From Vicinamibacterales bacterium (GTDB lineage Bacteria; Acidobacteriota; Vicinamibacteria; Vicinamibacterales; JAMQPK01): DNA of 64,000 nucleotides. The notes under the pieces were generated by a model that was given only the letters and a program-made list of their open reading frames with translations, ran no database searches and was not told where the DNA came from. The first letter of the stretch is position 1. Every line of letters begins with the position of its first letter. Positions 6,410 to 58,632 of the stretch are shown here, in pieces. The stretch covers positions 124,769-188,768 of the forward strand of contig CAWGDY010000011.1 in the NCBI GenBank assembly GCA_963821395.1, written 5' to 3'. A program made the position numbers and the translations under genes.

Positions 6410-6889
6410 TCATGCCATCTGCCATCTGCCATCTGCCATTTGCCATGTGCCATGACAGGTTTCTATTTGACGGTGCTCAGGCGGTTGCTGCGGATCGCCC
6501 GGCGCGCCGGTGCCGGTCGAGCCGATGAACAGCTTGCGGCCGTCCGGCAGCGTGATGTCTCTGCCGTTGGCTTTCAGCGTCCCATCCTTCGCCTGATATC
6601 CATCGACCACGATCGCCGTCCCGGCCGGCAGCGAGTTCTTGTTCACTCCGCGACGGAACAGGGTGTTGGGCGTGCCGCCTTCGATCATCCACTGTTCGGT
6701 GGTCCCGTTCGGCTGCTTGACGTCGATGTGAATCCACGCGTGTGGGTTGATCCACTCGACTTTGGTGACCGTGCCTTCCAGCTTGATCGGCTTCTTGGCG
6801 TCGAACTCTGCCGCGAATGCATGGTGCGCGCGCACGGTCATGGTGGCGCACACGAGACTCACGACAGCCAGGGCAAACAGCGTTCGCAT
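6410..6889 (-). CDS. DUF6152 family exported protein (true stop possibly near 6463)
   Basis: Signal peptide ending VRA, then HHAFAAEFD, GTVTKVEWINPHAWIHIDV, W.IEG and ITLPDGRKL. The C-terminal tail reads through the heptamer array. Confidence 0.85.
   Translation of the reverse strand: MRTLFALAVVSLVCATMTVRAHHAFAAEFDAKKPIKLEGTVTKVEWINPHAWIHIDVKQPNGTTEQWMIEGGTPNTLFRRGVNKNSLPAGTAIVVDGYQAKDGTLKANGRDITLPDGRKLFIGSTGTGAPGDPQQPPEHRQIETCHGTWQMADGRWQMA
6414..6455. repeat. Heptamer tandem array (gccatct)x6, degenerate
   Basis: gccatct gccatct gccatct gccattt gccatgt gccatga. Confidence 0.9.
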
Positions 6890-6905
6890 GAATCCTCCGG
6901 TCGGG

Positions 6906-7862
6906 TTATTTGTCTTCCGCTCGGGCCCCTTTGAGCAGGTTCGTCATGCCGTAATTTCCTTCGTGGCACGCGTACTCGAAGATGGGCCCGTCGGTCTTCG
7001 TCATCGGCACAGCCGCCGTCCACGATCGGGTGAACGACTCGGGATCGTCGATCGTGAACTGGTAGTCGAGTGTATCCGGATCGACGCGCGTGAACCGCTC
7101 GACGATCTTCAGGTTCGCGCTCGAGCCGCGAAAAATGGTCTTGTCGGTGAAATTCGTCGTCGTGACGATGAGCGTATTGCCGTCCCATCGGCCGCGCGAG
7201 TCTCCCATCCACTGGCGGATGGCCTGCGGTGCATGAGGACGGCCGTCGAGTGGAATGATTCGCACGTCGTGGATCATCTCGATGAGAATCGCGACGTAGC
7301 CGGGCGCCTGAAGAATCTGATAGTTGTTGTTGTAGCCGCCGGGAACCATGGGCGGACCGGCCGTCGGCCACAAGATGCACCGTTCGATGAGGCTGCGATC
7401 TTCCGGACCGTCGGCGGGGCTGCGGCGCCGCGCCTCCGCGCGTGCGTCGGCCCGGCTTTGCGCCGCCGGCGTCAGCGCCGGAACCCGGCCATCGGGTGGA
7501 TCCGTCACGAGCGAAGTGCGCCGCGTACCGACGACCTTCGTGCCGCGGTCGTACCAGAACTGGTTGTACGCCCGCCCGAGGTCGGCCTCGGTTCCACCCC
7601 CGCGATTGTCGGCGTCTCGCGCCTGGTTGGTCTGCCTCTCGAACTCGGCGGCTTCTTCCTGGGTGAGGACCGCCTTGCCGGACAGGTTTGCCGGGCGCTC
7701 GAACGGTGTCACGGTCGCGTTGGTCCAGAGTCCCTGCAGATCGGGGTCGCCCCATGGGGTTCGAGGCACGCTGCGCGGCGCAGGGGCCTGGGCGATCGCC
7801 GTGGCCACCGCCAGCGACACACCCGCGACCGTCAGCGTCACGTACCGGAGCCGGTGGTGCAT
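6906..7862 (-). CDS. Exported 'RTPWGDPDLQGLW' family protein, paralog 3
   Basis: Intact ORF with signal peptide; ERC, EMIHD, GDSRGRWDGNTL and EYACHEGNY motifs. Confidence 0.85.
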   Translation of the reverse strand: MHHRLRYVTLTVAGVSLAVATAIAQAPAPRSVPRTPWGDPDLQGLWTNATVTPFERPANLSGKAVLTQEEAAEFERQTNQARDADNRGGGTEADLGRAYNQFWYDRGTKVVGTRRTSLVTDPPDGRVPALTPAAQSRADARAEARRRSPADGPEDRSLIERCILWPTAGPPMVPGGYNNNYQILQAPGYVAILIEMIHDVRIIPLDGRPHAPQAIRQWMGDSRGRWDGNTLIVTTTNFTDKTIFRGSSANLKIVERFTRVDPDTLDYQFTIDDPESFTRSWTAAVPMTKTDGPIFEYACHEGNYGMTNLLKGARAEDK

Positions 7863-7940
7863 GAGGGACCTCGAAGCGCAAGATAGACCCTTCAAATCAA
7901 GGTGTCAATTGATTCGGTAAGGTTTAGACTTCGGGACTCA

Positions 7941-9089
7941 ATGGACCCTCATATGAAGCTTGGCGGTGCCGCCGCGGTCACCCTTACCCTCGCGATGAGC
8001 GTCGCGATTGCCGCGCAGACGGCCGCGCAGACCAACCCCCCGATGTCCGACCAGGTCTTCAAGAACGTCCAGGTGCTCAAAGGCATTCCCGTGGACGATT
8101 TCCTCGACACCATGGGCATCATGTCGGCGGCCCTGGGGTTCGATTGCGTGGAATGTCACGTGAATGCGGGCACCGACAACGTGAACTGGCAGTTCGACAC
8201 CGATAAGAAGCGCACGGCCCGGCGCATGACGTTGATGGTGGCGGCCATCAACAAGACCAACTTCGGCGGACGGCAGATGGTGACCTGCTGGACGTGCCAT
8301 CGCGGCCGGGATATTCCGGTGACGATGCCGCCGATCGACACGGTGTACGGCGAGGCGGTGGTGCTGCCCGACGAGATCGTCTCCGAACCGTTTCCCGGGG
8401 AGCCGTCGGTCGACCAGATTCTCGACAAGTATCTTCAGGCAATCGGCGGCGCCGCGCGGCTGGCAGCGGTGACCAGTTTCACCGCAACCGGCACGAGCCA
8501 GGGCTTCCGGGGTTTCGGCGGCGGAGGTCAGGTGCAGATCTACGCAAAGGCGCCCGATCAGCGTGCGACGATCATCAAGTTTGCCGAGAACATCGGACGG
8601 CAGGATGCCATACGCCTCTTCGACGGCCGGAACGGGTGGGTGTCGGCGCCGCTGTCCGTCGTGCCGCAATATGCCCTGGCTGGCAGCGAGCTCGACGGGG
8701 CACGCATCGACGCGCTGTTGTCGTTTCCGGCCCAGATAAAGACGGCGCTGACCCAGCTGCGCGTGGGTGCACCTGACTACATCGACAGCCGCGAGGTGCA
8801 CGTCATCCAGGGGAACGGTTCGCGCGGGTCCGTGGCCACGTTGTATTTCGACAAAGAGTCGGGTCTGCTCGTGCGGATGGTCCGCTTTGGCTCGTCGCCG
8901 ATTGGCCGGGCGCCCACACAGGTGGACTATTCCGACTATCGCGACGTGCCAGGCGCCGGCATCAAGATGCCGTTCCGCTGGACGTTCGGATGGCTCAATG
9001 GCCGCGACACCATCGAGTTGAAAGAGGTTCGGGTGAACGTGCCTATCGACGCGTGGGTGCTTCAGTCGAAAGCAGTAGCGCAGGGGTAG
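7941..9089 (+). CDS. Diheme c-type cytochrome (photosynthetic RC cytochrome c subunit-like N-domain) fused to a LolA-like beta domain
   Basis: Signal peptide; FKNVQVLKG, CVECH, KRTARRM and CWTCHRG; C-terminal LYFDKESGLLVR...DYSDYRDV...PF. Confidence 0.75.
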   Translation: MDPHMKLGGAAAVTLTLAMSVAIAAQTAAQTNPPMSDQVFKNVQVLKGIPVDDFLDTMGIMSAALGFDCVECHVNAGTDNVNWQFDTDKKRTARRMTLMVAAINKTNFGGRQMVTCWTCHRGRDIPVTMPPIDTVYGEAVVLPDEIVSEPFPGEPSVDQILDKYLQAIGGAARLAAVTSFTATGTSQGFRGFGGGGQVQIYAKAPDQRATIIKFAENIGRQDAIRLFDGRNGWVSAPLSVVPQYALAGSELDGARIDALLSFPAQIKTALTQLRVGAPDYIDSREVHVIQGNGSRGSVATLYFDKESGLLVRMVRFGSSPIGRAPTQVDYSDYRDVPGAGIKMPFRWTFGWLNGRDTIELKEVRVNVPIDAWVLQSKAVAQG

Positions 9090-9112
9090 AGACAGTAGAA
9101 AGCTACGAGACA

Positions 9113-9135
9113 GTAGCGCAGGGCTTTAGCCCTGC
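9113..9135 (+). repeat. GTAG-type REP palindrome
   Basis: gtagcgcagggctttagccctgc. Confidence 0.75.
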
Positions 9136-9183
9136 CGAAGGGGACTGGGCAACTGGAAACTGACTGGAAGGTCGGAGTACGAA

Positions 9184-11460: not shown

Positions 11461-11499
11461 GTCAGGGGAGTCTCTGCCGCGCGAGCAGAGGATGTCAAG

Positions 11500-11636
11500 T
11501 TAGGTGCGTTAGGTGCGTTGGATGCGAGAGGTGCGAGAGGTGCGAGAGGTGCGAGAGGTGCGAGAGGTGCGAGAACCCGCACCCGTCGCACCTGACGCAC
11601 CCAACGCACCCAACGCACCTAGCGTGTCGCACCTAG
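11500..11636. repeat. Inverted pair of 9-mer tandem arrays ((ag/tt)aggtgcg)n ... (cgcacc-NNN)n
   Basis: Left arm ttaggtgcg x2, ttggatgcg, agaggtgcg x5; right arm cgcacccgt, cgcacctga, cgcacccaa x2, cgcacctag. The right end overlaps the TonB receptor stop codon. Confidence 0.9.
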
Positions 11637-14600
11637 AAGGTGACTCTGGCTCCGATCTGTATGTCGCGCGGCTTCATGACGGTGCTCGAATCGATGTTGT
11701 TGAGTTTCATGAAGTTCGCGTTATTCGGCGTCAACACCATGTTGCCGACACCGAAGAGCGTGTAGTTGGTCGCGTTCAGCGCCTCGATGCGCACCTGCAC
11801 GCGAACCCGGTCGCCCACGGCGAAGTTCTTCGTCACGCCGAGATCGAGGAGGTGGTGTTCCATGAACCGGACGTCCGGCAGCGTCGTCGGGAACTTGCGC
11901 AGGTTCGCCTGGCCGAGCTGGATTTCAGTCGCCGTGAACGTCACCGGCTGCCCGGCTGCGTTGCGGAACGCCTGGCCGTTCATGGTGTAGAAGCAGCTGA
12001 TGTCGATGATCGGAATGTCGACGCCATGGATCTGATTGCCCGAGCCGCCCCACTGCGATTTCAGCTGCTTGGGATCGCCGCATTGCGGGTCATAGTAGGT
12101 GTTCTGGTTGAACACCAGCGGCGAGCCGCTCTGCCATTCGTACTTCGTGCTGAACTGCCACCCGCCGAGGATGGCGTCCGTGACGGCATTCCATCCGTCG
12201 CCGTAGCGGCGTCCGTGCCCGAAGGGCAGCTCGGCCACGCTGGCGAGCGTGATGCGATGCGGCCGGTCGGTCGCACCGATACGATCTTCGAGCTCGTCCC
12301 ACGGATTGAGCGGGGCCACTTGTTCCGTGAGGTGCGACCACGTGTAGGACGTCATCAGCATCAGGCCGTTGGTGAAGCGCTTGTCGAGCCTGAAAATCGC
12401 GCCGTTGTACATGTTCGAGCCGCGCGCCGTTTCCATGCAGAACGTCGTGGCTGTGCCTGTCGCGCAAGGGGCGCCCGACGTCTCGAACTGCGGATAGGCA
12501 TAGAGCAGACGGCGACGCGCGATCGTGGCGCCATTGGTCGCGGGCGAGTCGGGTGTCAGCCCTTGGAATGGATTCGAGACGGTTTGTGTCAGGAATGTTT
12601 CCGCGTCGTTGTCGCGAATCAGGCTCTGCGTGCGGTACTGCTGGGGCACGAAGTTCAGCGGCTCGAGAATCGCCTGATTCGAGCCGTGCTGGCCGATGTA
12701 GGACACCTCGAACAGCATTTCCCAGGGCAGCTGCCGCTCGACGCCGATACTGAATCGCCAGAATTCAGGGTTCACGCGATCGGCATTCCAGATGTTGCCT
12801 GGCGCGTTTCCGAGATTGGTCGAGAGACCCTGTGACGATCCCACCGGTTGTACGAGCTGGCCGCTCGGAACCGGATTGCTCAGGTTGGCCTGGAACGTCA
12901 AGCCCTGGTCGCTCGTCACGGGCACCGGCGTGTTGCGCGAGTACCCGATCTGATTGATGCCTGAGATGAGTCCCGGCACGCCCTGCAGCTGGAAGGGCGC
13001 GATGAATTTGCCGGTGCCACCACGCAGGACGGTCCGGTCGTCGATCTTGAACGAGAAGCCCGCTCGAGGCTGGAAGTTGCTCAAGTCCGCGTTCCATGCG
13101 TGAGACTGATCGCCAGACAGATACGTGTACCCGCCCAGCACGCGGAACTGGCTGGCCGGCCCCGGCACGCCCGCCGGCGGACTGGCCGCGAAGCGCGCCT
13201 GCGCCGCCGCCTCAATCGGATTCGTCGTCGTCAGATCGAACGGCCCGATGTTGCGATTGTCGCTCTCGGTCATGCCGAGCTCGAGGTCGTAGCGCACACC
13301 GAGATTGAGCGTCAGCCGGTCGCTTACGCGCCAGTCGTCGTGCACGAAGAACCCATGGCTGATGACCGTCGTGTCGTATTCGGGACGGAGCTCGATGAAG
13401 GACGTGGTATTGGGCAGGCCGAGCAGGAACGACGCGATCCCCTGACCGTACTGAGCAGTGGCCGCAGCCGTCGCGCGTGTATACGAGCTGTCGAAGGCGT
13501 ACGCGCCGCCGCGCCAGCCCAGGTTGGTCTCCTTCTGCCGCAGGCTCCGCCAGTCGTAGCCGAACTTCATCGTGTGGCCGCCCGTCGTCTTGGTGACGGT
13601 GGCCGCGAACTGCACGTTGTAGAACGGCTGCGTGCGTCCGTTGTTGAAGCCGCTCTGCTGCGCGCCGAGCGTGGCGACGCGGCCCGCGGTCGTCGCGTTC
13701 GACGACTCGATGCTGTAGCGGGGCAGCTGCTCGAAGTCGCCGAACAGCCCGAGCGTGGAAGGGGAGTAGCCGAGGGTGGCGAGGTCGAGATTGTAGAGAG
13801 GGAACAGGTCGTCGTTGAACCGCAGCCAGCTGGCTTTCAGGTCGAGCACCATGCTCTGCGAGAGAACCGCCGTGTGGCCACCTGCCCAATTGTAGTTGAA
13901 GCGGTCAGTCGATCCGCGGGTGATTTCCACGCCGTTCACCGCGCCGGCGAAGTTGAAGCGTTCCTCGCGTCGGAAGTTACGAAGGAATCGCCCGTAGGTC
14001 TTCTGCGACGACTGTCCACTGGTGATCGATCCGCGTCATCGCGAAGTTGTACGCGTATGTCCACGGCTGTTCGATGAAGAAGTTCGACGAGAGGTCTGCT
14101 GCTGGCGTAGCGTTGGGCGCAGGAAAGTAGCTTCAGGATGTTTGCCGCGATCGGGTTGATGCGATTGGCCGGAATGACGTTGCCGGGAAATGGCTGGCGT
14201 GTCACGACGCCGTTGACCAGCTGGGCGGTAGCTGGATCGTAGATCTGTACGCCAAGCGGCAGCAGTTCCCCGAAATCGCCCGACCGCATGCGCGAGGTCG
14301 GAACCGAGGTCGTCAGCGCCTCGACCGTGTCGTCCTGGAGCTTCTCGTACGAGAACATGAAGAACGTCTTGTTCTTGAAGATGGGCCCCGAGACCATACC
14401 GCTGAAGCGGTTGTAGTCGCGCGGCTGCTTGCTCGTGCCCAGGCGATTGGACGCGAAGAGGCTGGCCGATCGCGAGTCGTCACGGTTGTAGAACGACAGG
14501 GCGCCATGGAGCGAGTTGGTGCCGCTCTTGAGCGCCAGGTTCACGCTGCCGGCGCCGGTATGCCCGATCTGGGCGTCGTAGCCGGCGGTCTCGACCTTGA

Positions 14601-15267
14601 ACTCCTCAATGGCGTCGGAGGGCGGCTGGATGCCGACGCGAGCCTGCGAGACGACGTTGCTCGAACCGTCAATCGTGAACTCGCTGTTCAGCGTGCCGGT
14701 GACGGCCGCGCCGCGCAGGTTGTCGTTGTCCATGGGCCGCTGCAGGGCGTACGAGCGCTCGAACGTGGCGCCGGCGACCAGTCGTGTCAGCCCGTAGGCC
14801 GTGCCGTCGCCCAGCGGGATCTCGCTGATGAGCTTGCTGTCGATCACCTGGCCCATCGAGGCCGTGCTCGTCTCGAGCTGCACCGTGTCGGCCACGACCG
14901 ACACCTGCTCTGTCACGCCCGCCGGCTGCAACGTGATGTCGAGCTGCAGACGCTCGCCGACGCGGACCTGCACGGTGGGATGATCCTTGGTCTGAAACCC
15001 GCTGAGCTCCGCCGTCACGCGGTACGACCCGGGCAGCAGGAACAGCGCTGCATATTGACCGGTGTCGTTGGTCACCAGCGACGTGGTGCTGTTGGTGCCG
15101 TTGTTGACGACCGTCACCGTGACGCCGGGCAGGGCGCCGCCGGATGAATCCACGATCAGGCCGGCGATCGATCCGCGCGACTCCTGCGCGATCGCCGTCG
15201 AGCCATACAGAGCCACCGCACAGACGACGCCCGCAATGCCAAGCCAATGCCGGATTGTTCCTGTCAT
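11633..15267 (-). CDS. TonB-dependent receptor with N-terminal carboxypeptidase-regulatory-like domain (Oar-like); frameshifts near 14130 and 14010
   Basis: DSSGGALPGVTVT N-domain, AIEEFKVET plug, DDWRVSDRLTLNLGVRYD, C-terminal PRDIQIGARVTF. Split between ORFs 13936-15267 and 11633-13939. Confidence 0.85.
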
Positions 15268-48885: not shown

Positions 48886-48905
48886 GCGTTGGAGTATAGC
48901 AACCC

Positions 48906-48998
48906 GAATTCGCAGATTCGCAGATTCGCAGATTGTGGGATTGATTGGGAGATTCAAACGTAATCTTCGAATCTGGCAATCTGCGAATCTGCGAATTC
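48906..48998. mobile_element. MITE-like 93-bp element (copy 2)
   Basis: Same terminal repeats and nearly the same interior as 42771-42862. Its end overlaps the stop codon of FKBP 2. Confidence 0.65.
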
Positions 48999-49879: not shown

Positions 49880-50238
49880 GAACCGCCTCCAGAGTTGAGA
49901 GCTTTCTGTACCATTCCACGAATCTTCGTAATGTTGTCCGTCCGGACGGGACACGTCATGTCGGTGGCGACGCACTGCGCGAGCGTCATTCCGCAGCCGC
50001 AGGTGCAGCGCGCGCCGTTTGCTTCGACGAGAGCCGAATGCTTCTGATCGCTCGTCAGGGAGCTGAAGTCGATAGCCGTCAGCTGCCGCTCGCCGTAGGC
50101 GATGCTCGATGTGTTGGCCAGGCCATAAAAAATGCCGCCAATGGCGGCAACGACACCCAGCCAGATAGCCACACTTCTGGCGCGCCGGGCCAGCCTGCTG
50201 CGAGCGCCGAGTTTGGAACGGGGCTTGGCCCTGGCCAC
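49876..50238 (-). CDS. Single-TM protein with CxCxC-x6-C-x6-C motif
   Basis: TM helix, then RCTCGCGMTLAQCVATDMTCP; its stop overlaps the FKBP 3 start. Confidence 0.7.
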   Translation of the reverse strand: MARAKPRSKLGARSRLARRARSVAIWLGVVAAIGGIFYGLANTSSIAYGERQLTAIDFSSLTSDQKHSALVEANGARCTCGCGMTLAQCVATDMTCPVRTDNITKIRGMVQKALNSGGGS

Positions 50239-50292
50239 CGCTCTCCATTGTAAGTCGGAACCCCGAACACCTTTGCGGCAGAATGTTCAGCT

Positions 50293-51081
50293 ATGGGCAA
50301 ACGGCTTCTGTTTATCTACGCGCACCCAGACGATGAGAGCTTCGGCGTGGCGGGACTCTCGCGGATGTGCGCCGATGAGGGGGCCGATATCGGGATCGTG
50401 ACGGCCACGCGCGGCGATGCCGGACGCGCCGGCGAGCCCGCCTTGTGCAGCAGGGAAGAGCTGCCAGCACGACGCGAAGCCGAGCTGCGCGAAGCCGCGC
50501 GGATTCTCGGTATCAACTACGTAAGGGTGCTCGACTATCGCGACCAGCACCTGGCAAGCGCGCCACCCGGGCAGATTCGGGCGGAGCTCGTCGAGGTGAT
50601 CCGGCGGCATCGCCCGCATGTCGTCGTCACCTTCGATCCGAACGGCGCGAACCTGCACCCCGACCATGTGGCGATTTCACGATTTGCGGGTGATGCGGTT
50701 GCGGCGGCTGATGATTCGCGATGGCATCCCGAGGCCGGTCCTGCCCATCGCGTGCAGCGCCTGCTCTGGATCCCTCCGGTGCTGCCGTGGGACGCGCCGA
50801 AATCACCAGACCTTGGCGCCGAGCCGGGTATCGACTTTCTCATCGATACGTCGAAGTACCGCGACGCGAAAGCGGCCGCGCTCCGGGCACACCGGACGCA
50901 GCATGTCTCCATCAACCGGCATTTCTTCGACCAGCCGAACGTCGACCAGATCCTGAGCGTCGAGGCGTTCCGTCAGGCGTTCGGGCCGCCGCTCTCGAGG
51001 AGGCCATCTGCCGACATCTTCGAGTCGGTTGTTACCGACATATACTCGGATTCATGCGAAAGCTCGGCATCGTCGTCCTGA
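50293..51081 (+). CDS. PIG-L family deacetylase 2
   Basis: AHPDDE, TATRGDAG, HPDH and AHRTQ. Confidence 0.88.
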   Translation: MGKRLLFIYAHPDDESFGVAGLSRMCADEGADIGIVTATRGDAGRAGEPALCSREELPARREAELREAARILGINYVRVLDYRDQHLASAPPGQIRAELVEVIRRHRPHVVVTFDPNGANLHPDHVAISRFAGDAVAAADDSRWHPEAGPAHRVQRLLWIPPVLPWDAPKSPDLGAEPGIDFLIDTSKYRDAKAAALRAHRTQHVSINRHFFDQPNVDQILSVEAFRQAFGPPLSRRPSADIFESVVTDIYSDSCESSASSS

Positions 51082-52583
51082 GTCTGATGCTCGTGGTCGC
51101 CGGCCTCGCGGCCGCGGGATTTCGTCTGCAGCGTGGCGGAAACGGTTGGCCCCGGTTCATCGTACGCTCGCAGCAGGAAGCGCTGGAGGCCGACCGCGCC
51201 CGTCAGCGCGAAACGTCCGCCTTCGCTCGGACGAATCCAGACGAGCTACGGCGCGACAAGCCCAGCGCATCGACGCCGCCTCGCAGGCTTCGCCCATCGC
51301 ACCGGCGGCAGGCCTAGTGCATCCGCCTCCGCTCAGACGAATTCAGATGAGCTTCGGCGCGACAGGCCCAACGCATCCGCCTTCGCGCAGACTTCGCCTA
51401 TCGCTTCGGCGGACAAGCCCAGCAGTAGTTGGACCGACTTTCGCGGGCCGAATCGCGACGGGCGCTACACCGCGACACCGATACGCACCACCTGGCCGCG
51501 CGAAGGGCTGCGGCGGTTGTGGAAGCAGCCGGTTGGCGGCGGGTATGCCTCGTTCGTCGTCGCCGACGGCCGTGCGTTCACGATCGAACAGCGCCGGAAC
51601 GAGGAGGTCGTTGCGGCCTACGACATCCAGACCGGCCGGGAACTGTGGACCAACAGCTGGACTGCGAACTTCGAGGAGTCGATGGGCGGCGACGGTCCGC
51701 GCGCGACGCCGACCTGGCACGAAGGGCGCCTCTACGCGCTCGGCGCCGAAGGCGAGCTGCGCGTGCTCGACGCCTCGAAGGGCACGCTGGTGTGGCGTCG
51801 CAACATTCTCACCGACAACCGCGCCGACAATCTGAGCTGGGGCATGTCCGCGTCACCCCTCATCGTCGATGACAAGGTCATCGTCCTGCCCGGTGGCACG
51901 CGCGGCAGTTCCGTCGTGGCGTACAACAAACTGACCGGCGCTCCGATCTGGAAAGCGCTGAACGACGAGGCGTCGTACACCTCGCCAATGCTCGCGACCA
52001 TCGCCGGCGTGCGACAGATGCTCGTCGTCACGGCGGCACGCGCGACCGGCCTTACGGTCGAGAACGGGACGCTGCTGTGGGAATACCCTGGAGCACGTTC
52101 AGCGGCATCAACGTGTCGCAGCCGATTCCGTTCACGCACGAGGGGCGCAATCTGCTGTTCATTTCGGCAGGGTACGGTCATGGCGCCGCGGTGTTTGAGC
52201 TGGTGAAGACCGGCGATCGTTTCCAGACGAAGACGGTCTGGGAAAACCAGCGGATGAACAACAAGTTCACCAGCTCGGTGCTGCACAACGGGCACATCTA
52301 CGGCCTCGACGAATCGATCCTCGCGAGCGTGAACGCCGTGACCGGTGAGCAGAACTGGAAAGGCGGCCGCTACGGCTACGGCCAGGTGATGCTGGCCGGC
52401 GATCATTTGATTGTGCTGACCGAAGACGGCGACGTGGTGCTCGTGAACGCGACGCCGGCGCGGCACGAGGAGCTCGCGCGGTTCCCGGCGCTGGAAGGAA
52501 AGACGTGGAATCACCCGGTCATCGCCGACGGCAAGCTGCTCGTCCGGAACCTCCAGGAAATGGCCGCTTTCGATATCCGGTGA
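51054..52583 (+). CDS. PQQ-like beta-propeller (BamB-like) protein (frameshifts near 51280 and 52088)
   Basis: N-terminal TM, WTDFRGPNRDG, GGGYAS, GPRATP, ASPL and TWNHPVIADGKLLVRN. Confidence 0.8.
51216..51420 (+). repeat. Tandem palindromic units (tccgccttcgc...agcttcggcg.gacaagccc) inside the coding linker
   Basis: Three clear units encoding SAFARTNPDELRRDKP, SASAQTNSDELRRDRP and SAFAQTSPIASADKP, plus one decayed unit. Confidence 0.75.
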
Positions 52584-52589
52584 ACATTC

Positions 52590-52690
52590 GACGCAGAGAC
52601 GCAGAGACGCAGAGAAATACAAACAGATCAGGAGATCAGAAGAACTCTTTTCTTTTGAAATAGGACTTCTGGTCTTCTGATCTTCTGTTT
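52590..52690. repeat. (gacgcaga)x3 followed by inverted (caggagat/cagaagat)-type arms, between convergent genes
   Basis: gacgcagagacgcagagacgcagag; gatcaggagatcagaaga ... tcttctgatcttctg. Confidence 0.7.
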
Positions 52691-52710
52691 TCTTTTCGGT
52701 TTCGGCCTGG

Positions 52711-53451
52711 TTATTTTTTCGGGGCCGCGATGAACTTGTAGCCGACGCTTCTGACGGTCGTCAGATGGCGTGGGCGTGAGGGTTCTTTCTCGATGTACTT
52801 CCGCAGGCGGGCGATGAAGTGGTCGATGGCGCGCGTGTCCGTGTCCTCGCGCAGGTTCCACACCTCTTCGAGCATGTTCTTGCGCGACACGGCCTTTCCC
52901 TCGTGCTGCACGAGGTAGCGCAGGAGGTTCGCCTCCATCAGCGTCAACGGGTAGGTCCGGCCCGCCGCCACCAACTCCTGGGCGTCGAAGTCCACCACCT
53001 TGTCGGCGAACTTGAACACGTCTCGCGATGCGACTGCCGGGGCTGCGGCTGAGTGGTTGAGGCCGCGCATGGTGGCGTGCCACGTGTGTCGGCGCAGCAG
53101 CGCGTTGATGCGGGCCACGAGAATCGACAGCTCGAAGGGCTTGGGGAGGTAGTCGTCGGCTCCGGCCTCGAATCCCCGAAGCACGTCCTCGGCCCGGCCG
53201 CGGGCGGTGAGCATGAGAATCGGCGTCAGCCATCCTTTCGCGCGCATGCGCGAGGCGACGGCAAAGCCGTCCATGCCGGGCAGCATCACGTCGAGCACCA
53301 CGAGATCGACGCGCGACGGATCCGACTCGAGCTCCGCCAGCGCGGCTTCGCCGTTGTCTCGCAGCGTCACCTGATGGCCGTCGGCTTCGAGGTTGAAGCA
53401 CAGCCCCGAGGCGATGTGCGCTTCGTCTTCGACGATGAGCAGTCTCGACAT
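52711..53451 (-). CDS. OmpR/PhoB family response regulator
   Basis: LLIVEDE, LDVMLPGMDG, GADDYLPKPF, wHTH with RLRKYIE and TVRSVGYKF. Confidence 0.92.
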   Translation of the reverse strand: MSRLLIVEDEAHIASGLCFNLEADGHQVTLRDNGEAALAELESDPSRVDLVVLDVMLPGMDGFAVASRMRAKGWLTPILMLTARGRAEDVLRGFEAGADDYLPKPFELSILVARINALLRRHTWHATMRGLNHSAAAPAVASRDVFKFADKVVDFDAQELVAAGRTYPLTLMEANLLRYLVQHEGKAVSRKNMLEEVWNLREDTDTRAIDHFIARLRKYIEKEPSRPRHLTTVRSVGYKFIAAPKK

Positions 53452-53453
53452 CG

Positions 53454-54377
53454 TCAGAGGGACAACGAGCGTCCGGCGGGTGCCGACGGCAGTTCCAGCG
53501 TGAAGGTGGCGCCGCGGCCCACGCCCTCGCTCTGGGCGAAGGCGCGGCCCCCGTGCTGTTTCGCGGTTTGCGCCACGATGAAGAGGCCAAGGCCCGTGCC
53601 CTTCACGCGCTGAGTCAGCGCCCACGGCGTCCGGTAAAAGCGGCCGAAGATCCGCTTGGTTTCGTTCGGCGGAATGCCGATCCCCTGATCGCGCACGCGG
53701 ACGACCGCGAGGTCTTCGTCACCCTTGCCGACCTCGACCTCCACGCGGACGTGATCGCGGGAATACTTGACGGCGTTGTCCAGCAGGTTGAGGATGGCGC
53801 CCCGCAGATGGTCGGGATCGCCGAAGACCTCGATCGGTTCGTGCGCGGCGCCAACCATCTGCAGTGCCTCCCGGGGCAGGTGCCGCTGAGATTTCGTTAC
53901 CTCGATGCACTCCTCCGCAAGCGCCTGCAAGTCGACGCGCACCTGCTGGAAGGGTCCGCGTCCCTTCTGGCCGGCCGAAAGGACCTGCTCGATCAGGTGC
54001 AGCAGGCGGTCGCTGTCCTGCAGCATCACATCGTAAAACTCGCGCCGCTTGCTCTCGTCCACGGCCTGGCCGCGCGACTTGAGCGTCTCGAGATGCAGGC
54101 GGATGGACGTCACCGGCGTTTTCAGTTCGTGGGTCACGGAGTTCACGAACGCGTCGTGCTGTTCGCTGCGCCGGATTTCGCGCACGAGAAACGTGGTGTT
54201 GAGAATGAGTCCGGTGATGATGGCCGCAAAGACGAGACTTCCGACCAGAAGCGGGACGATTTCGCGTAGGGTGAGGACGACCCATCCCACGTTCAGGGCG
54301 ACGGCCAGGGCAACCAGGCAGACGCAGAACGTGACGAAAAAGGCGATGACGCCCTGGCGCCCGGGGGCGACGGACAT
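53454..54377 (-). CDS. Sensor histidine kinase with two TMs and almost no extracytoplasmic loop
   Basis: H-box THELKTP, NLLDNAVKYS, DQGIGI and GTGLGL. Confidence 0.92.
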   Translation of the reverse strand: MSVAPGRQGVIAFFVTFCVCLVALAVALNVGWVVLTLREIVPLLVGSLVFAAIITGLILNTTFLVREIRRSEQHDAFVNSVTHELKTPVTSIRLHLETLKSRGQAVDESKRREFYDVMLQDSDRLLHLIEQVLSAGQKGRGPFQQVRVDLQALAEECIEVTKSQRHLPREALQMVGAAHEPIEVFGDPDHLRGAILNLLDNAVKYSRDHVRVEVEVGKGDEDLAVVRVRDQGIGIPPNETKRIFGRFYRTPWALTQRVKGTGLGLFIVAQTAKQHGGRAFAQSEGVGRGATFTLELPSAPAGRSLSL

Positions 54378-54403
54378 AGGCGGTACTATAGAACTTGACG
54401 ATG

Positions 54404-54498
54404 AAAACTAGAAACTAGAATCTAAAAACTAGAATCTAAAACAGGCTCGTAGATTCCAGATTTGAGATCTCAGATTCTAGATTTTAGTTTCTAGATTC
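54404..54498. repeat. Inverted heptamer arrays (tagaatc/aaaacta)n ... (tagattt/tagtttc)n
   Basis: aaaactagaaactagaatctaaaaactagaatctaaaac ... ctagattttagtttctagattc; same unit at 47571, 57816-57963 and 58581-58632. Confidence 0.85.
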
Positions 54499-54508
54499 GA
54501 GGCTCCAG

Positions 54509-55357
54509 CTAGGCGGCTTCTTCGAGGCTGGCGTCGATCGCGGCGCGCCGCACCTGCGTGGCCAACCCGAGCGCCTGGAAGAGGCGGATGTGCCAGTAGG
54601 TGATGTCGATCTCGTACCACGCGAGGCCGTGTGCGGCCGAGGTGGGATGGGCGTGGTGGTTGTTGTGCCAGCCCTCGCCAAAGCTCAACGCGGCCACCCA
54701 CCAGAGGTTGCGCGAGTCGTCTCGGGTCGCGAAGCGGCGCGATCCCCACATGTGCGTGGCCGAGTTCACCAGCCAGGTCACGTGCAGACCGACCGTGGTC
54801 CGCAGGAAGATGCCCCACAGCACCCAGTTCCATCCACCGAGGGCCAGCAGGAGAAAGCCGAGCACGGTGAGCGGAATCCAGTGGTACTTGCTGATCCAGA
54901 CGTGGAAGGGATCCTTGCCGAGATCGGGCGCGTACTTCGCGGTGATCTTGTTGTCGTTGTGCAGCGCATCGCCGAAGAGGATCCAGCCCATGTGCGCCCA
55001 CCAGCCGCCGTGCAGTGGTGTGTGCGGGTCGTGGTCGGTATCCGAGTGCTGGTGATGCTGGCGATGCGTGGCGACCCAGAAGAGCGGTCCGCCTTCGAGC
55101 GCGAGGGTCGCGCAGATGGTCAGGAAATATTCCACAGGCTTCGACGTCTTGTACGACCGGTGCGTGAGCAGCCGGTGATACGCCATGCCGATGCCGAGCG
55201 ATAACGAAATGTAGTACGTGACGAGAAAGACCGCGAGTCCTTCCCACGTGAACTGGAAGAGTGCCCACACCGCGCCAATGTGGAAGAGCGTCATGAAAAA
55301 CGCAGTGGTCCACGACAACTTGCTATAGCGCGCGGACAGGGCAGCAACGGATGCCAA
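54509..55357 (-). CDS. Delta-9-type fatty acid desaturase
   Basis: His boxes HRLLTH, HRQHH and GEGWHNNHH; TTG start at 55357 with AGGAG. Confidence 0.92.
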   Translation of the reverse strand: MASVAALSARYSKLSWTTAFFMTLFHIGAVWALFQFTWEGLAVFLVTYYISLSLGIGMAYHRLLTHRSYKTSKPVEYFLTICATLALEGGPLFWVATHRQHHQHSDTDHDPHTPLHGGWWAHMGWILFGDALHNDNKITAKYAPDLGKDPFHVWISKYHWIPLTVLGFLLLALGGWNWVLWGIFLRTTVGLHVTWLVNSATHMWGSRRFATRDDSRNLWWVAALSFGEGWHNNHHAHPTSAAHGLAWYEIDITYWHIRLFQALGLATQVRRAAIDASLEEAA

Positions 55358-55425
55358 TGTTTTCAACTCCTGTTGTTTGTCGGAAGAACGGCCCCATGAC
55401 GATAGCAAGCCGGGGCGATGACGTT

Positions 55426-55442
55426 TGTAAGACTTCTGTAAG
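55426..55442 (-). promoter_or_regulatory. Direct repeat CTTACA-N5-CTTACA (11-bp period), OmpR/PhoB-type box
   Basis: Plus strand tgtaag acttc tgtaag, about 70 nt upstream of the desaturase. Confidence 0.55.
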
Positions 55443-55462
55443 CGACCTAATAGGCTGGTAAA

Positions 55463-57334
55463 TCAGCTAGTTACGGCTGAATATCCGCGCGCTTGCAGAT
55501 TGAACAGGGTGGCGTACATCCCATGCAGGGCGAGCAAATCGGCGTGCGAACCGGCTTCGACGACCTTGCCGTCGTGCAGCACGATGATGTGCTCGGCCAT
55601 GCGCACCGTCGAGAAGCGATGTGAAATGAGCAACGTGATGCGCTCCGTTCCATGCTCGCGCAGGCGATCGATCATCGCCGCTTCGGCGATGGCGTCGAGC
55701 GCCGCCGTCGGCTCGTCGAAGATCTGAACCGACGCGGGACGGAAGTACAGGCGACCGAGCGCGAGCCTCTGCCATTGTCCGCCCGACAACTGGCGCCCTC
55801 CCGGAAACAACCGTCCGAGCATCGTCTCGTAGCGCTCAGGCAGTTCGTTGACCACGTCGACCGCTCCGGACTTTTCACCAGCCCGGTGAATCGACGCATC
55901 TTCCTGCATCCGGTCGGTGCGGCTGAGACCGATGTTCTCGCGCGCCGTCATCTGATACTGCCCGTAGTCCTGGAAGATGATGCTCATCTCGCGCTGCACG
56001 CTGCGCGGACTGAAGCGCGACGCGTCGAGGCCGTTCAGGAAGATGCGGCCCGCCGTGGGCTCGAACAATCGGGTGACGAGCTTGACGACGGTGGTCTTGC
56101 CCGCGCCGTTTTCGCCGACCAGCGCGAGTGCATGTCCTCTGCCGATCTTGAACGAAACCTCCGACAGCACGTCGCGGTCGGTCAGCGGATAGCGGAAGCT
56201 GACGCGTTCGAATTCGATGGACTCGATCGGCCCCCGCCATTCTTCGCCTTCGTCGAGGTTGCGAGACGGCAGCTCGAGAAACTCGAAAAGGTTTCGCATG
56301 TAGAGCAGGCTTTCGTAGATGCCGGTCACGCTGTTGAGGAGCGACGTGAACTGGCTCTGGATCTGCACGATCCCGCCGACGAAGAGGGCGAAATCGCCGA
56401 CCGTGATCGTGGCGTTGGCCGCCCGCCGCAAGACCGAGAGGGTGGCGAACGCGATCAGCAGGGCCGACCCGAGCGTCGCGGCGAGTCCCCACGCGCTGCG
56501 CCGTCCGAGCAGATTGACGAATTGCGCGCGGAACTTCAGATAGTAGTCCTGCCAGCCCTCGAGCAGGTATCGCTCGAACCCGAACAGCCGCACTTCCTTG
56601 ACGAGCGCGTCGGAGGTGAGGATCGAGCCGAGATAGTTCTGGTGGCGAGCGTCGGTCGCGCGCCGCCGCATCTGCCGGTATCCTTCGGCGCCAAAGCGGC
56701 TCGAGACGACGACGCCGGGAATGCTCGCGAGGAGAATCAGCGGCAGCACCTGCCATCCAAGACGCGACATCAGGCCGCCGATCGAGGTCAGGGTAATCAG
56801 CGCCTGGCCGATCCCGATGATCTGGAACATGACGCCGAGCGGGCGCGAGCCGACCTCGTTGTAGGCATTGCGAAGCGCATCGTAGGTTTCGGCGTTCTCG
56901 AAGCTCTCCACATCGAGCGCCGCGGCTTTGTGCAGGATGCGCAGGCTGATGCGGTTCTGCAGCGTGTCCCCCAGCAGCTCGCGCGAGGTGCTGTAGACCG
57001 TCTGCACGAGCGACGAGACGATCGCGATGCCGACCTGCAGCGCCAGCAGCATCGCCAGCCGCCGGTACGCCTCGTCCGGGCTCGGCATCGTTCCGGAGAT
57101 GGCGCGGGCGACTTCGTCCACGAGCAGTTTGCCGACCCACAAGGTTGCCGCCGGGACGAGCGCGAGCAGCGTGCTGAGGCCGAGAATCAGCGAGAACAGA
57201 CGCGGGCTGGCGGACCACACGAGGCGCGCCGTCGCCGCGAGATCGGCGAGCATCTGCCGCGTGCGCACGCCGAGCGGAAGTGCGGGCTCGGGCTTTGGCT
57301 GACGGGCTCCGGAGTGGTCTCTAGGCGGCACCAT
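55463..57334 (-). CDS. ABC exporter, fused permease/ATPase
   Basis: TMD; KEVRLFG; GENGAGKT, LSGGQWQR, DEPT and ISHRFSTV. Confidence 0.92.
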   Translation of the reverse strand: MVPPRDHSGARQPKPEPALPLGVRTRQMLADLAATARLVWSASPRLFSLILGLSTLLALVPAATLWVGKLLVDEVARAISGTMPSPDEAYRRLAMLLALQVGIAIVSSLVQTVYSTSRELLGDTLQNRISLRILHKAAALDVESFENAETYDALRNAYNEVGSRPLGVMFQIIGIGQALITLTSIGGLMSRLGWQVLPLILLASIPGVVVSSRFGAEGYRQMRRRATDARHQNYLGSILTSDALVKEVRLFGFERYLLEGWQDYYLKFRAQFVNLLGRRSAWGLAATLGSALLIAFATLSVLRRAANATITVGDFALFVGGIVQIQSQFTSLLNSVTGIYESLLYMRNLFEFLELPSRNLDEGEEWRGPIESIEFERVSFRYPLTDRDVLSEVSFKIGRGHALALVGENGAGKTTVVKLVTRLFEPTAGRIFLNGLDASRFSPRSVQREMSIIFQDYGQYQMTARENIGLSRTDRMQEDASIHRAGEKSGAVDVVNELPERYETMLGRLFPGGRQLSGGQWQRLALGRLYFRPASVQIFDEPTAALDAIAEAAMIDRLREHGTERITLLISHRFSTVRMAEHIIVLHDGKVVEAGSHADLLALHGMYATLFNLQARGYSAVTS

Positions 57335-57417
57335 CGCAATCGTACTAGACCGTCCGGAACTGGCAACAGCGGGCGCCGAAAAACCGCGAATTTGCTGGCA
57401 ATTTCACGCACGGGATG

Positions 57418-57433
57418 CGGCACGCGGGTTGCT
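57418..57433 (+). promoter_or_regulatory. Putative sigma54 promoter
   Basis: CGGCAC-GCGGG-TTGCT, near consensus; followed by AGGAGG and ATG 57462. Confidence 0.6.
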
Positions 57434-57461
57434 CCGCCGAAAAGGAGGTCAGGAGGCTCTC

Positions 57462-57782
57462 ATGTGGTTGCGCGCCCGATCCAAGACGGCGCTGTGCTTG
57501 AGCGTGGTGTCGTTTCTCTTTACGCCCGCGATCGCGAAGCACCAGGAAACGACCGCCGTAAGGCTGCCCGCGCATCGCGTCGCGGTGGAGCACCTCACGT
57601 GCGATCGGAGCGTCATCGATCCCGGGGAAACGGGCGTGGTGAAATTCCTGGCCGAGCGGAATCCCGACTTCGATCCGGAGTGGGATGATGAGACCGACGC
57701 GGGACTACAACCGCCGAGTGTGCGACCTGATTGTGCGCTTCGCCGAGCCGGCCGCCCACATCAAGCGCACGTCGACCGGTAA
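57462..57782 (+). CDS. Small exported hypothetical protein (106 aa)
   Basis: Strong RBS, signal peptide ending AIA, acidic patch DFDPEWDDETD. Confidence 0.6.
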   Translation: MWLRARSKTALCLSVVSFLFTPAIAKHQETTAVRLPAHRVAVEHLTCDRSVIDPGETGVVKFLAERNPDFDPEWDDETDAGLQPPSVRPDCALRRAGRPHQAHVDR

Positions 57783-57815
57783 GGGCGCCGGGTGGTGACG
57801 CGGAATCGGAAGCTC

Positions 57816-57963
57816 GAATCTAAAAACTAAAATCTAAAAACTAGAATCTTGTGTTGGATTGTACGCAGTGTCCGCCTTCAGGGACCGCTCAAAGTCCGGC
57901 TAAAGCCGGACACCACATACTCCAAAGTCAGATTTTAGTTTCTAGAATCTAGTTTCTAGATTC
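57816..57963. repeat. Inverted heptamer arms enclosing an inverted REP doublet (REPIN-like)
   Basis: Arms at 57816-57849 and 57929-57963; centre gcagtgtccgccttcagggacc ... gtccggctaaagccggacaccac. Confidence 0.75.
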
Positions 57964-57970
57964 CCACGCC

Positions 57971-58543
57971 CTATTTGGCCCCGGCTCCGCGACCACGCAT
58001 CCCGCGCTCTGTCGAAGGCGGAACCATTCCCTTGGTTCGGATGTAAACCGTCAGGATTCCGTATTCCTCGTTGCCGTGCACGACGAGGTTGGCGAGAACC
58101 GATCCGCGCGCAACTTCGTTCTGACCCTGCTTCACCAGCTCGACCGCGCTCTGGTCGGTCAGCTTCTCAAAGGCCGGATCGCAGAACGCAAACGAATCGG
58201 CGAGCGCCTTGATGATCTCGTCGCGCGTTTTCAACGTCTGTTCGAGGTTCTGCCCCTGGTTCGGGTTCGCCTCGCCTCTGGCGGCCGCGCACGAGTTGAA
58301 CTGCGAGTTGGCCACGTGCGCGAGCTGCCCGCCGTACGGCCGGATTTCGGGAGACGGGCGATAACCGTAGTCGGCCTCGCCAAATTTCTGCGCGCTTTCG
58401 GTGAGATTCATCTTCAAGGTGTTGTACGACCGCCGGAGGCCTTCGCTGAGGGGAACCTTCTGCCCACCCGCGGCCGGCGCCTGCGCCTGGACCGTGGCTG
58501 CCACGAGCGCGCACGCGAACATCAGACAAACCACTGCTTTCAT
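57971..58543 (-). CDS. Exported DinB family protein
   Basis: Signal peptide; YRPSPEIRPYGGQLAHVA and HGNEEYG.LTVYIRTKGMVPPS. Confidence 0.85.
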   Translation of the reverse strand: MKAVVCLMFACALVAATVQAQAPAAGGQKVPLSEGLRRSYNTLKMNLTESAQKFGEADYGYRPSPEIRPYGGQLAHVANSQFNSCAAARGEANPNQGQNLEQTLKTRDEIIKALADSFAFCDPAFEKLTDQSAVELVKQGQNEVARGSVLANLVVHGNEEYGILTVYIRTKGMVPPSTERGMRGRGAGAK

Positions 58544-58580
58544 AGACGCTCCTTCTGGAGTTACCGAATGAGGAACATTA

Positions 58581-58632
58581 TTCCAGATTTTGGTTTCCAG
58601 ATTTTAGTTTCTAGATTTTAGATTGTAGATTC
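58581..58632. repeat. Heptamer array (agatttt/agtttct)
   Basis: ttccagattttggtttccagattttagtttctagattttagattgtagattc. Confidence 0.75.

Follow-up and report, generated by a model that had tools for sequence, protein, structure and literature searches.

Tandem-repeat arrays of many unit sequences in a Vicinamibacterales bacterium, probably born of slippage and, where paired, candidate hairpins at transcript 3' ends

Can short tandem-repeat arrays with many different unit sequences be one kind of genetic element and, if so, how do they arise and what might they do at the ends of genes? The question is raised by a stretch of 64,000 nucleotides from a Vicinamibacterales bacterium (NCBI GenBank assembly GCA_963821395.1, contig CAWGDY010000011.1, positions 124,769 to 188,768 of the forward strand; hereafter the window), in which an earlier note, made from the letters alone, had described a family of arrays with 7-9-bp units, several of them facing one another as inverted arms. 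Our analysis confirmed that observation and partly supports the interpretation that came with it. The arrays are a trait of the lineage, beyond this one window. As for their nature, it is probable that they are slippage-generated repeats typical of the lineage, that the paired ones act as hairpins at the 3' ends of transcripts and that some elements have been copied between sites; their function is read here from anatomy and comparison only.

Array census in the window and its relatives

A strict repeat detector found only 8 arrays, because the units are degenerate, and was replaced by Tandem Repeats Finder (TRF; period 6-10, at least three copies, score of at least 30, non-overlapping), set against 50 dinucleotide-preserving shuffles. 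The window holds 22 short-period arrays covering 763 nt, where the shuffles have a mean of 1.4 (sd 1.1, maximum 4); with units in the 5-11-nt range repeated this far beyond chance (22 vs 1.4 +/- 1.1), these are long simple sequence repeats (LSSRs). Every array that the earlier note had listed was found, at or within a few bases of the place it gave, and one more came to light at 52590-52615. Twenty of the 22 are intergenic or lie at the ends of open reading frames (ORFs), and those at 3742-3808 and 55047-55074, inside Pfam-supported genes, are ordinary coding repeats outside the family.

Relatives of the locus came from one genome-contig search with the ABC transporter at 55463-57334 as query, which returned 77 loci (referred to by L numbers). 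The 26 best are contigs of Vicinamibacterales-type metagenome-assembled genomes (MAGs) at 78-98% amino-acid identity, and the remaining 51 are mostly Deinococcota at about 60%; none was a self-match at 100%. Array density in the 26 related loci (176 arrays in 521 kb, or 3.4 per 10 kb) equals the window's 3.4, while the 51 other loci have 70 arrays over 831 kb; restricted to periods 7 and 8, the figures are 2.6 per 10 kb in the related loci and 0.33 in the others. When window and related loci were pooled (n=198), 115 arrays had a period of 7 nt, 39 of 8, 29 of 9, 14 of 6 and one of 10. Just 29 of the 198 lie well inside called ORFs, though 82% of the DNA is called coding, and 17 of those 29 have period 6 or 9. 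Dominance of heptamers (115/198) and exclusion from coding DNA of periods that are not multiples of three thus follow the pattern of Mrazek-type LSSRs, as that pattern is summarised in PMC4679880. Some arrays in relatives are very long, such as GGAGTCCA x27.9 from L008:16261 onward, GGTTCC x16.2 from L005:766 onward and GAATCTA x14.3 from L004:12824 onward. One related contig, L018, is labelled Bifidobacteriaceae yet is colinear with Vicinamibacterales loci at about 80% nucleotide identity, and is probably mis-binned.

At least seven unit families occur within the 64 kb, with units of 7, 8 or 9 nt and most of them without G-tracts. The earlier note had called the unit sequences unrelated, which proved wrong in that four families recur inside the window and the same families are found in relatives. 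Single-linkage clustering of units at one mismatch merged all heptamers and was uninformative, so exact canonical units were used instead; among those shared by different sites and species are AATCTGG (8 arrays), AGATGGC (7), AATCTAG (6) and AACGCACCT (6), and the 9-mer family of 11496-11636 is found at other sites in L004, L008, L017 and L018.

Pairing, folding and placement

What unites these arrays is less their sequence than their arrangement. An inverted partner within 250 nt was found for 79 of the 198 arrays (40%), against 2 when sequences were reversed and 8 when they were complemented, controls in which composition and repeat structure are kept; the notion of one architecture behind many unit sequences is borne out by these counts. 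Inverted pairs in the window span 11496-11626, 42771-42862, 48169-48274, 48906-48998, 54405-54501, 57809-57956 and 20462-20846. The hairpins that such arrays form have imperfect, repeat-built stems of 25-45 bp and loops that are often about 25 nt long. Each of the seven compact hairpins of the window folds with a z-score between -4.1 and -9.9, and none of the 200 shuffles made per element was as good; the single-arm arrays at 6413, 20462, 27443, 47573 and 58580 fold no better than shuffles (z near 0). Arms 20462 and 20814, 337 nt apart, pair with each other in the minimum-free-energy (MFE) fold of 20450-20860 (-143.3 kcal/mol, z -4.05), the left arm (20462-20487) being 96% complementary to 20823-20846.

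At the convergent junction 48141/48280, which we call site B, hairpin structure is kept while sequence changes. All 17 sequences compared there have an array or a hairpin, and 13 of the 17 have a paired repeat hairpin. Across 21 arm pairs, 85.3% of cells are paired, compared with 35-58% when partners are slid by 1-3 columns and with 80.9 +/- 1.2% in shuffles (0/500 as high), and 22 cells are altered on both sides, compared with 11.9 +/- 2.9 in shuffles (0/500 reach 22). RNAalifold also recovers the hairpin in an 11-sequence alignment, subject to that tool's own caveats on related sequences. Pairs have a consistent polarity as well, since the first-read arm, which is the same on either strand, tends to have more G than C (59 cases vs 10) and to be purine-rich (60 vs 19); a single array lying no more than 60 nt 3' of a called stop is likewise usually purine-rich in the mRNA sense (35 vs 10).

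The same arrangement, with arrays of 7-8-nt units that face each other across a short loop, was also seen in some Deinococcus and Deinococcales loci (L053:18120-18230 and 21470-21600, L026:10190-10310, L060:13120-13230).

The placement of paired arrays follows the ends of genes. On a manually drawn gene map, 7 of the 9 convergent junctions of the window hold an array; four compact hairpins occupy stop-to-stop gaps (42771-42862, 48169-48274, 52620-52690 and 57809-57963), three lie between co-directional genes right after the upstream stop (11496-11636, 48906-48998 and 54405-54501), and the one array in a divergent interval is the single-arm 58580-58632. In the pooled set, paired arrays begin 0-40 nt 3' of stop codons (0-36 nt in the window), and 70 of the 74 intergenic ones border a gene 3' end. 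Divergent intervals contain 4 of these 74, against a baseline of 119/576 (p=4.5e-4), whereas single arrays show no such bias (23/88, p=0.23) and sit in short within-operon spacers or beside promoters. A stable stem-loop shortly after the stop (z -4.1 to -9.9), together with avoidance of divergent intervals, agrees with the terminator-like RNA hairpins that the earlier note had proposed, as far as placement goes, and suggests a function of that kind.

That note had further held that arrays abut or supply stop and start codons. The part on stops stands: the TAG of the gene ending at 11633 sits within the last 9-mer of its hairpin, and at hairpin 48906-48998 the arm end, GAATTC, shares bases with the TGA at 48997. 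The starts apparently supplied at 47563 are probably an artefact of ORF extension, because the spacer at this place (site A, 47573-47610) differs in length by non-multiples of 3 in 10 of 14 relatives; in L014 and L022 the array is absent. Units do not seem to be selected to carry stops in all frames, as 61/154 contain a stop triplet, compared with 48.9 among random intergenic k-mers and 73.3 among letter-shuffled units, which gives no clear signal. Nor do the arrays look like phase-variation repeats: most follow stops, their neighbours are a mixture of housekeeping and regulatory genes, and just one, 58580-58632, is promoter-adjacent.

These features can be joined into one account, in which replication slippage in place would be the main source of the arrays of 7-9-nt units, and whole elements would occasionally be copied from one gene end to another. 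The transcript of a paired array would fold into a long imperfect hairpin starting 0-40 nt past the stop; being built of repeats, the arms can pair in any of several registers and stay complementary while the unit drifts. Such hairpins may form or protect mRNA 3' ends, as intrinsic terminators or the elements called repetitive extragenic palindromes (REP) and bacterial interspersed mosaic elements (BIME) do, in both directions where genes converge. Single-arm arrays would be slippage-grown spacers, tolerated or mildly used, at operon junctions and beside promoters.

Several points weigh against this account. The U-rich tail by which intrinsic terminators are defined is confined to a subset: of 35 hairpins, 6 have at least five T in the 12 nt past the right arm, a weak excess over the 9% of background 12-mers, with stem ends that are imprecise because they come from local alignment. 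A consensus terminator scan of 41000-60999 flagged none of the repeat hairpins, its 3-8-nt loop limit excluding them by design. Hairpins 48906-48998 and 54405-54501 stop 22-27 nt short of the next start codon, so complete termination there would silence the downstream gene unless it had its own promoter; a leaderless -10 is a possible way out solely at 54377, and nothing comparable was found at 48906. Single-arm arrays, with z near 0, are unexplained by a hairpin model. Of the 17 site-B sequences, 11 entered the covariation test, picked for alignable octamer arms; array counts pool orthologous sites and are therefore non-independent; and gene calls over all sources come from a crude caller based on GC content at third codon positions (GC3), with some genes missed or misplaced.

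Where a U-rich tail exists it is clearest in the CAGGAGAT family (48169-48274 and 52620-52690), which has A-rich leaders too; hairpin 48169-48274 combines an AT-rich loop with T-rich tails both ways, and 11496-11636 and 42771-42862 have no such tail. The promoter/terminator scan of 41000-60999 returned 24 terminator-like sites where 15.1 were expected, few of them at gene ends. Given a U-tail in a subset only, the silence of the terminator scan and the short distances to starts, we call the elements 3'-end hairpins and file them in neither the terminator nor the REP family.

Orthologous sites and the origin of the arrays

About 20 relatives have a colinear gene order over 45-64 kb; their nucleotide identity is 92-95% for L001-L004 and 70-82% for the rest. 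Alignments made with blastn break exactly at array sites, where the flanking genes align and the arrays do not, and genus-level relatives have a different unit, an ordinary GC-rich hairpin or nothing in their place. The comparison of filled with empty orthologous sites that the earlier note had called for thus found presence/absence variation, at sites C, D and G (below) and at junction 27438/27478. As arrays also occur in short-read assemblies, neither of the two outcomes that the note had named as refuting its reading was observed.

At site B the unit is CAGGAGAT in the window, a related octamer in L001, GACGCAGA in L003 and the heptamer GGCAGAT in L004; L002 has one GACGCAGA arm with a GC-rich hairpin, L017 and L022 have single arms, and L014 has solely a GC-rich GTAG...CTAC hairpin. 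Site C (48906-48998) is empty in L002, where the two FKBP genes are 4 nt apart, and elsewhere has hairpins of two families: ATTCGCAG in the window and the CAGGAGAT type in L001 and L004, with a shorter, partial CAGGAGAT-type hairpin in L003. Among 19 sequences of site D (52583/52711), 7 have a CAGGAGAT/CAGAAGAT-type hairpin, 9 have just 20-41 nt between the stops and 3 have other inserts; in L015 the hairpin arms are separated by about 190 nt. The GAATCTA hairpin of site E (54377/54509) is present in 5 of 24 sequences, L015 being nearly empty. L002 and L003 have here a GC-rich stem of the classical kind with UUUAUAGUU after it (-51.7 and -41.3 kcal/mol; z -7.7 and -6.3), and further relatives have GATCTATA-type or GCTACnG-type arrays. 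Site F (57809-57963) has other unit families in relatives, the L022 ortholog of 42771-42862 has a GGGGCAA hairpin instead, and at junction 27438/27478 L012 and L013 have an ATGA stop/start overlap and no array. Arrays therefore vary in presence and are also replaced wholesale, in two places by a terminator-like hairpin of the ordinary kind.

The array of site G (58580-58632) is absent in 5 of 15 sequences. Around it (58540-58650), an intergenic segment of about 85 nt that contains both array and -10-like box lies the other way round than in L005 and L007 (alignment score 52-53 in reverse, 18 forward), so that the promoter-like box faces a DinB-family gene in the window and a gluconate-dehydrogenase subunit gene in L005 and L007; L001-L004 apparently share the window orientation. 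At site F, the + strand gene 57429-57782, which stands between the ABC-transporter and DinB-family genes, is about 550 nt shorter than in L001-L005 (391 vs 645-1014 nt extracted), with a jump in the alignment at 57623, and is probably the remnant of a deletion.

Two observations point to in-place slippage. Between close relatives, copy number changes in whole-unit steps, an instance being the one 14-nt double unit of site G (L002 and L003). At site E, a -10-like box (TATAGT, TATCAT or TATCCT) stands 6-8 nt upstream of the histidine-kinase start in nearly all relatives (window 54377-54400; orthologs in 23 loci), and its conservation suggests a promoter with a leaderless transcript. Hairpin 54405-54501 abuts this box, TATAGT in the window, and the unit copies its neighbour: GATCTATA arrays stand beside TCTATAGT, and GCTACnG arrays beside GCTATC. 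A dedicated enzyme that generates or mobilises the arms, as the earlier note had envisaged, is unneeded for most of the data, with which slippage agrees.

[quoted passage not shown] The hairpins 42771-42862 and 48906-48998 are one element of about 94 nt, loop included, with 6 differences, sharp ends and unrelated flanks. In L004 the hairpins of sites B and F match each other at about 85% over 66 nt, with the loop; L002 and L003 share only the site-F copy. Unit families are shared by different sites of different species, sites C, D, G and junction 27438/27478 are filled in some genomes and empty in others, and elements are nested, a REP-like hairpin within 57809-57963 and a fragment between the split L015 arms of site D. 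Against this, filled/empty comparisons, made by inspection only and with filled sites whose adjacent bases differ too, revealed neither a target-site duplication nor a clean boundary of insertion; a Pfam scan of the 58 window ORFs found no transposase, REP-associated tyrosine transposase (RAYT) or integrase domain, in keeping with the earlier note's remark that no cognate enzyme is visible in the window. Mimicry of the -10 box and differences by whole units are unexpected of insertion, and gene conversion between similar arrays would also yield equal copies. We judge the mobile-element reading to be somewhat unlikely.

A bolder version, which we put forward as unlikely, treats paired arrays as copy-and-paste palindromic cassettes. 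These would home to sites after stops, displace each other and terminators within genus-level time, accept nested elements, be able to enclose a small gene within a long-range stem and spread by an undescribed mechanism, either enzyme-free template switching between hairpins or a hairpin-specific transposase. That loops of paired arrays take in other small elements, namely the REP-like hairpin and the nested fragment of L015, is observed; the cassette mechanism itself is a candidate idea. The earlier note's suggestion that arms may be the ends of cargo cassettes has one case to go by, a 65-aa gene between the GGGATTA arms, which has no sign of mobility; the other enclosed item of the window is the nested REP-like hairpin. 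If the cassette reading were true, the paired heptamer hairpins of the Deinococcus loci (L053, L026, L060) and those described for Xanthomonas (PMC4692102) would be the same phenomenon across phyla.

It is also conceivable, and in our estimation quite improbable, that the arrays have no function, slippage-prone replication or repair expanding whatever seeds are at hand, with terminator palindromes as the commonest seeds of pairs. Heptanucleotides dominate the long simple repeats of many bacteria and are ascribed to polymerase slippage (Mrazek 2007, in the summary of PMC4679880). Empty sites are viable, including those with tight ATGA or TGAnnnnATG junctions, and some Vicinamibacterales relatives are array-poor (L021, L023 and L035, each with 1-2 arrays per 22 kb). 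Against a functionless origin speak the avoidance of divergent intervals by paired and not by single arrays, arms that remain complementary through unit changes, the consistent G/purine-first orientation and the retention of an array or hairpin in 17/17 site-B sequences.

Other signals, whether G-quadruplexes (G4) in the GGGATTA arrays, iterated protein-binding sites or translation control before starts, have a slim chance of being the general explanation. The mRNA strand of array 27443-27468, at 10 nt from the ATG that follows, shows four G-tracts, 20819-20844 has four C-tracts, and both resemble the G-rich heptamers of Xanthomonas and Nostoc, whose four-unit arrays give G4 in vitro (PMC4692102); the single arrays at 27443, 41261 and 47573 lie just before start codons, like the TAACTGA repeats of Beggiatoaceae (PMC4679880). 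However, a G-tract of at least 3 in every one of four units is found in 27443-27468 and 20819-20844 and nearly in 20464-20487, that is in 3 of the 20 intergenic window arrays, and in none of the other 17; dozens of different units argue against a single binding protein, and mutual pairing explains the paired arrays better.

That the arrays are artefacts of assembly or long-read sequencing can be set aside, as contigs with short-read assembler names carry them (5 in L016, 9 in L018 and 2 within the 4.3 kb of L019), they recur at orthologous sites in independent assemblies and complementary arms are not a product of sequencing errors, even if many related loci come from long-read MAGs and some short-read-type contigs are poor in arrays (3 in L013, 1 in L023, 2 in L035, 0 in L012).

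Known systems and individual elements

The short tandemly repeated repetitive (STRR) sequences of cyanobacteria are intergenic tandem heptamers with several sequence families per genome, and by this description the arrays resemble them. The earlier note had invoked these cyanobacterial repeats; as the host is a Vicinamibacterales acidobacterium, at 64% GC in the window, and no cyanobacterium, this is a resemblance and not membership. To our knowledge, paired hairpins at stop codons are no part of the STRR definition.

REP sequences of E. coli protect 3' ends or cause partial termination, and REP stems have a unique GC-rich sequence, a GTAG-type end and a cognate RAYT transposase. Like REP, BIME and REPIN elements, the paired arrays are extragenic palindromes at gene ends or between operon genes, with RNA hairpins, dispersed families and nesting. 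They differ in that their arms are tandem repeats of many families, often AT-rich, and in the lack of a RAYT among the 58 window ORFs; hairpins with GTAG ends coexist with them as a separate set. Membership in REP/REPIN, as a GC-rich palindrome with a GTAG end and near-identical copies, is thereby rejected. With intrinsic terminators the paired arrays share a stem-loop tens of nt past the stop, bidirectional between convergent genes, and they are swapped in sister lineages for a GC-rich stem plus U run; the difference lies in the 25-45-bp imperfect repeat-built stems, the loops of often about 25 nt and a U tract confined to a subset. MITEs are likewise small, with terminal inverted repeats such as the paired arrays have, with presence/absence at orthologous sites and several copies of one element, whereas here inspection showed no duplicated target site and each arm is itself repetitive; we know of no related autonomous element.

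Closest among described systems are the GGGAATC and GGGGA(C/T)T heptamers of Xanthomonas and Nostoc, which are spread genome-wide and mostly non-coding, lie near stops and are scarce where ORFs diverge (Rehm et al. 2015, PMC4692102). In that description, Xanthomonas has 70-75 facing inverted array pairs per genome, array length and sequence vary among related species while site and single or paired type are kept, and function was left unresolved. The likeness extends from non-coding tandem heptamers near stops and inverted pairs to the unit itself, GGGATTA/GGGGATT in the window being nearly that of Nostoc. There, however, each organism has one G-rich motif, read as a quadruplex former, while here there are at least seven families of 7-, 8- or 9-nt units, mostly without G-tracts; in addition, unit identity is replaced outright between genus-level relatives here, and the phylum is Acidobacteriota. 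The TAACTGA repeats of Beggiatoaceae occur in 2-6 intergenic copies, often a few nt upstream of a start codon, with one indirect repeat among 169 sets (MacGregor 2015, PMC4679880); the window's single arrays 27443, 41261 and 47573 resemble them. The Beggiatoaceae repeats have a single unit sequence, whereas here there are many units and 40% of the arrays are paired. A preprint on Nostoc places heptamer arrays near promoters and start codons, with regulatory effects described there as unresolved (10.1101/2022.06.06.494920).

A search of the literature on tandem heptamer repeats found nothing for Vicinamibacterales or Acidobacteriota, and 'Satellites in the prokaryote world' (PMC6749651) has no passage on hairpins, inverted repeats or terminators. 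New here are the lineage, the number of coexisting unit families, 8- and 9-nt units in the same architecture, and a replacement series that includes swaps with classical hairpins.

Should the paired arrays be slippage-born 3'-end hairpins, then a soil lineage that is large and has been little studied makes many of its gene-end hairpins from fast-evolving tandem repeats, and sites that are filled in some genomes and empty, swapped or classical in others would be a natural series for the origin, drift and replacement of terminator and mRNA-stabilising hairpins. Such hairpins would mark operon ends where consensus terminator scans detect almost nothing, and the role of bacterial heptamer repeats could be approached with many unit families comparable within one genome. 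In annotation, ORFs that run into arrays gain false starts and tails; in assembly and strain typing, the arrays behave like variable-number tandem-repeat (VNTR) loci.

The individual elements are collected in Table 1.

Table 1. Tandem-repeat elements of the window and features beside them
Position	Element	Context	Fold
6334-6401	GC-rich REP-like hairpin	adjoins array 6413-6453	
6413-6453	single heptamer array, TGCCATC x5.9	3' end of DUF6152 ORF 6410-6889 (minus)	z -1.0
11496-11636	paired 9-mer hairpin, AGGTGCGnn arms	directly 3' of outer-membrane barrel gene 11633-13939 (minus)	-86.5 kcal/mol, z -9.9
11499-11619	9-mer arms (TRF), TGCGAGAGG x5.8 facing CGCACCCAA x4.7		
20462-20487	left GGGATTA-type arm, G-rich on + strand (TRF unit GGGATTG at 20466-20487)	5 nt 3' of ilvD-like stop, upstream of 65-aa gene	
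20609-20806	gene of 65-aa protein (+), 31 homologues	between GGGATTA arms	
20814-20846	right arm, CCCTAAT x3.7 (TRF 20819-20844)	between 65-aa gene stop and convergent radical-SAM stop at 20874	
27443-27468	single G-rich array, TAGGGAT x3.9, four G-tracts	39-nt spacer, PIG-L stop to decarboxylase ATG 27478	z -0.7
28979-29005	weak single array, GGAACTG x4.0, 76% matches	between convergent stops 28956 and 29027	
36551-36594	degenerate single array, CATCGCC x6.3, 72% matches	23 nt before convergent minus-strand stop 36617	
41261-41291	short array, GCCAGAA x3.4	just 3' of DUF1552 stop, at or in start of ankyrin-repeat ORF	
42771-42862	paired octamer hairpin, ATTCGCAG / CTGCGAAT	fills gap between convergent stops 42766 and 42866	-58.1 kcal/mol, z -7.2
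42773-42860 and 48908-48996	TRF arrays, units ATTCGCAG / AATCTGCG		
47573-47610	single GAATCTG array	spacer between co-directional gene 46969-47562 and DUF4390 gene	z -0.7
48169-48274	paired octamer hairpin, CAGGAGAT / ATCTCCTG	between convergent stops 48141 and 48280	z -5.3
48906-48998	second ATTCGCAG hairpin	between two co-directional FKBP genes (minus)	z -7.7
52590-52615	single octamer array, GACGCAGA x3.2 (missing from earlier list)	7 nt 3' of stop 52583	
52620-52690	paired hairpin of the CAGGAGAT/CAGAAGAT type, T-rich tails	between convergent stops 52583 and 52711	z -5.4
54405-54501	paired AT-rich GAATCTA-type heptamer hairpin (TRF 54405-54497)	between desaturase stop 54509 and histidine-kinase start 54377 (minus)	z -4.1
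57809-57963	paired GAATCTA-type arms (TRF 57817-57963) around GC-rich REP-like hairpin (about 57855-57925)	between convergent stops 57782 and 57971	z -6.5
58580-58632	single AT-rich array, AGATTTT/AGTTTCT (GAATCTA type, TRF 58580-58631)	divergent interval 58543/58639, adjoins -10-like box	z +0.3

Two of the single arrays have a context that bears comment. The coding-frame signal of the kinase ORF fades at 36551-36594, and this context is ambiguous because the ORF remains open to 36810; array 41261-41291 may code for the N-terminus of the ankyrin-repeat ORF.

The 65-aa protein encoded between the GGGATTA arms has 31 homologues (E<=1e-3), which are 60-113 aa long and as little as 36% identical; the 16 of them that were aligned share the invariant C-terminal motif K.VLTEVRGLATKVDRLTR.R.R. 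It hit no Pfam family above cutoff, a search of a protein atlas gave no lead of 0.9 or more, and the GC3 of the gene is not raised; its conservation marks it as a real small gene. With 1-2 contigs listed per cluster, it has no sign of a multi-copy or mobile nature. The 325-nt stretch between the arms was considered as a dispersed element and rejected, blastn and tblastn giving no second copy in the window or the 77 loci.

GC-rich hairpins with GTAG/CTAC-type ends form a set of their own at 6334-6401, 57855-57925, 60988-61019 and 63393-63420, with further REP-like examples at L014:17487-17580 and L002:18066-18194; the one at 57855-57925 has relatives at 60988-61019 and 63393-63420 and in several loci. 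They too lie at gene ends, one of them inside the tandem-repeat hairpin 57809-57963.

Rfam at gathering thresholds gave 0 matches in the window, and a tRNA/tmRNA scan was likewise empty. The Pfam content of the window is typical of Acidobacteria/Planctomycetes (DUF1501/DUF1800, PSD/PSCyt, DUF1552, and barrels with CarboxypepD_reg and OMP_b-brl_4). One outer-membrane barrel of the TonB-dependent type is split into two minus-strand ORFs, 11633-13939 and 13936-15267, that overlap by 4 nt, with positions 2-134 of OMP_b-brl_4 (Pfam) in one and 196-838 in the other; the split (11633-15267) could be a frameshift, a pseudogene or a sequencing error. The PQQ/BamB-like gene 51133-52583 appears as two overlapping ORFs (51133-52206 and 52077-52583), and 106 nt of it are duplicated in tandem at 51216-51412. 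At 48280-50248 (minus) stand three tandem genes for prolyl isomerases of the FKBP type, with a repeat hairpin between them.

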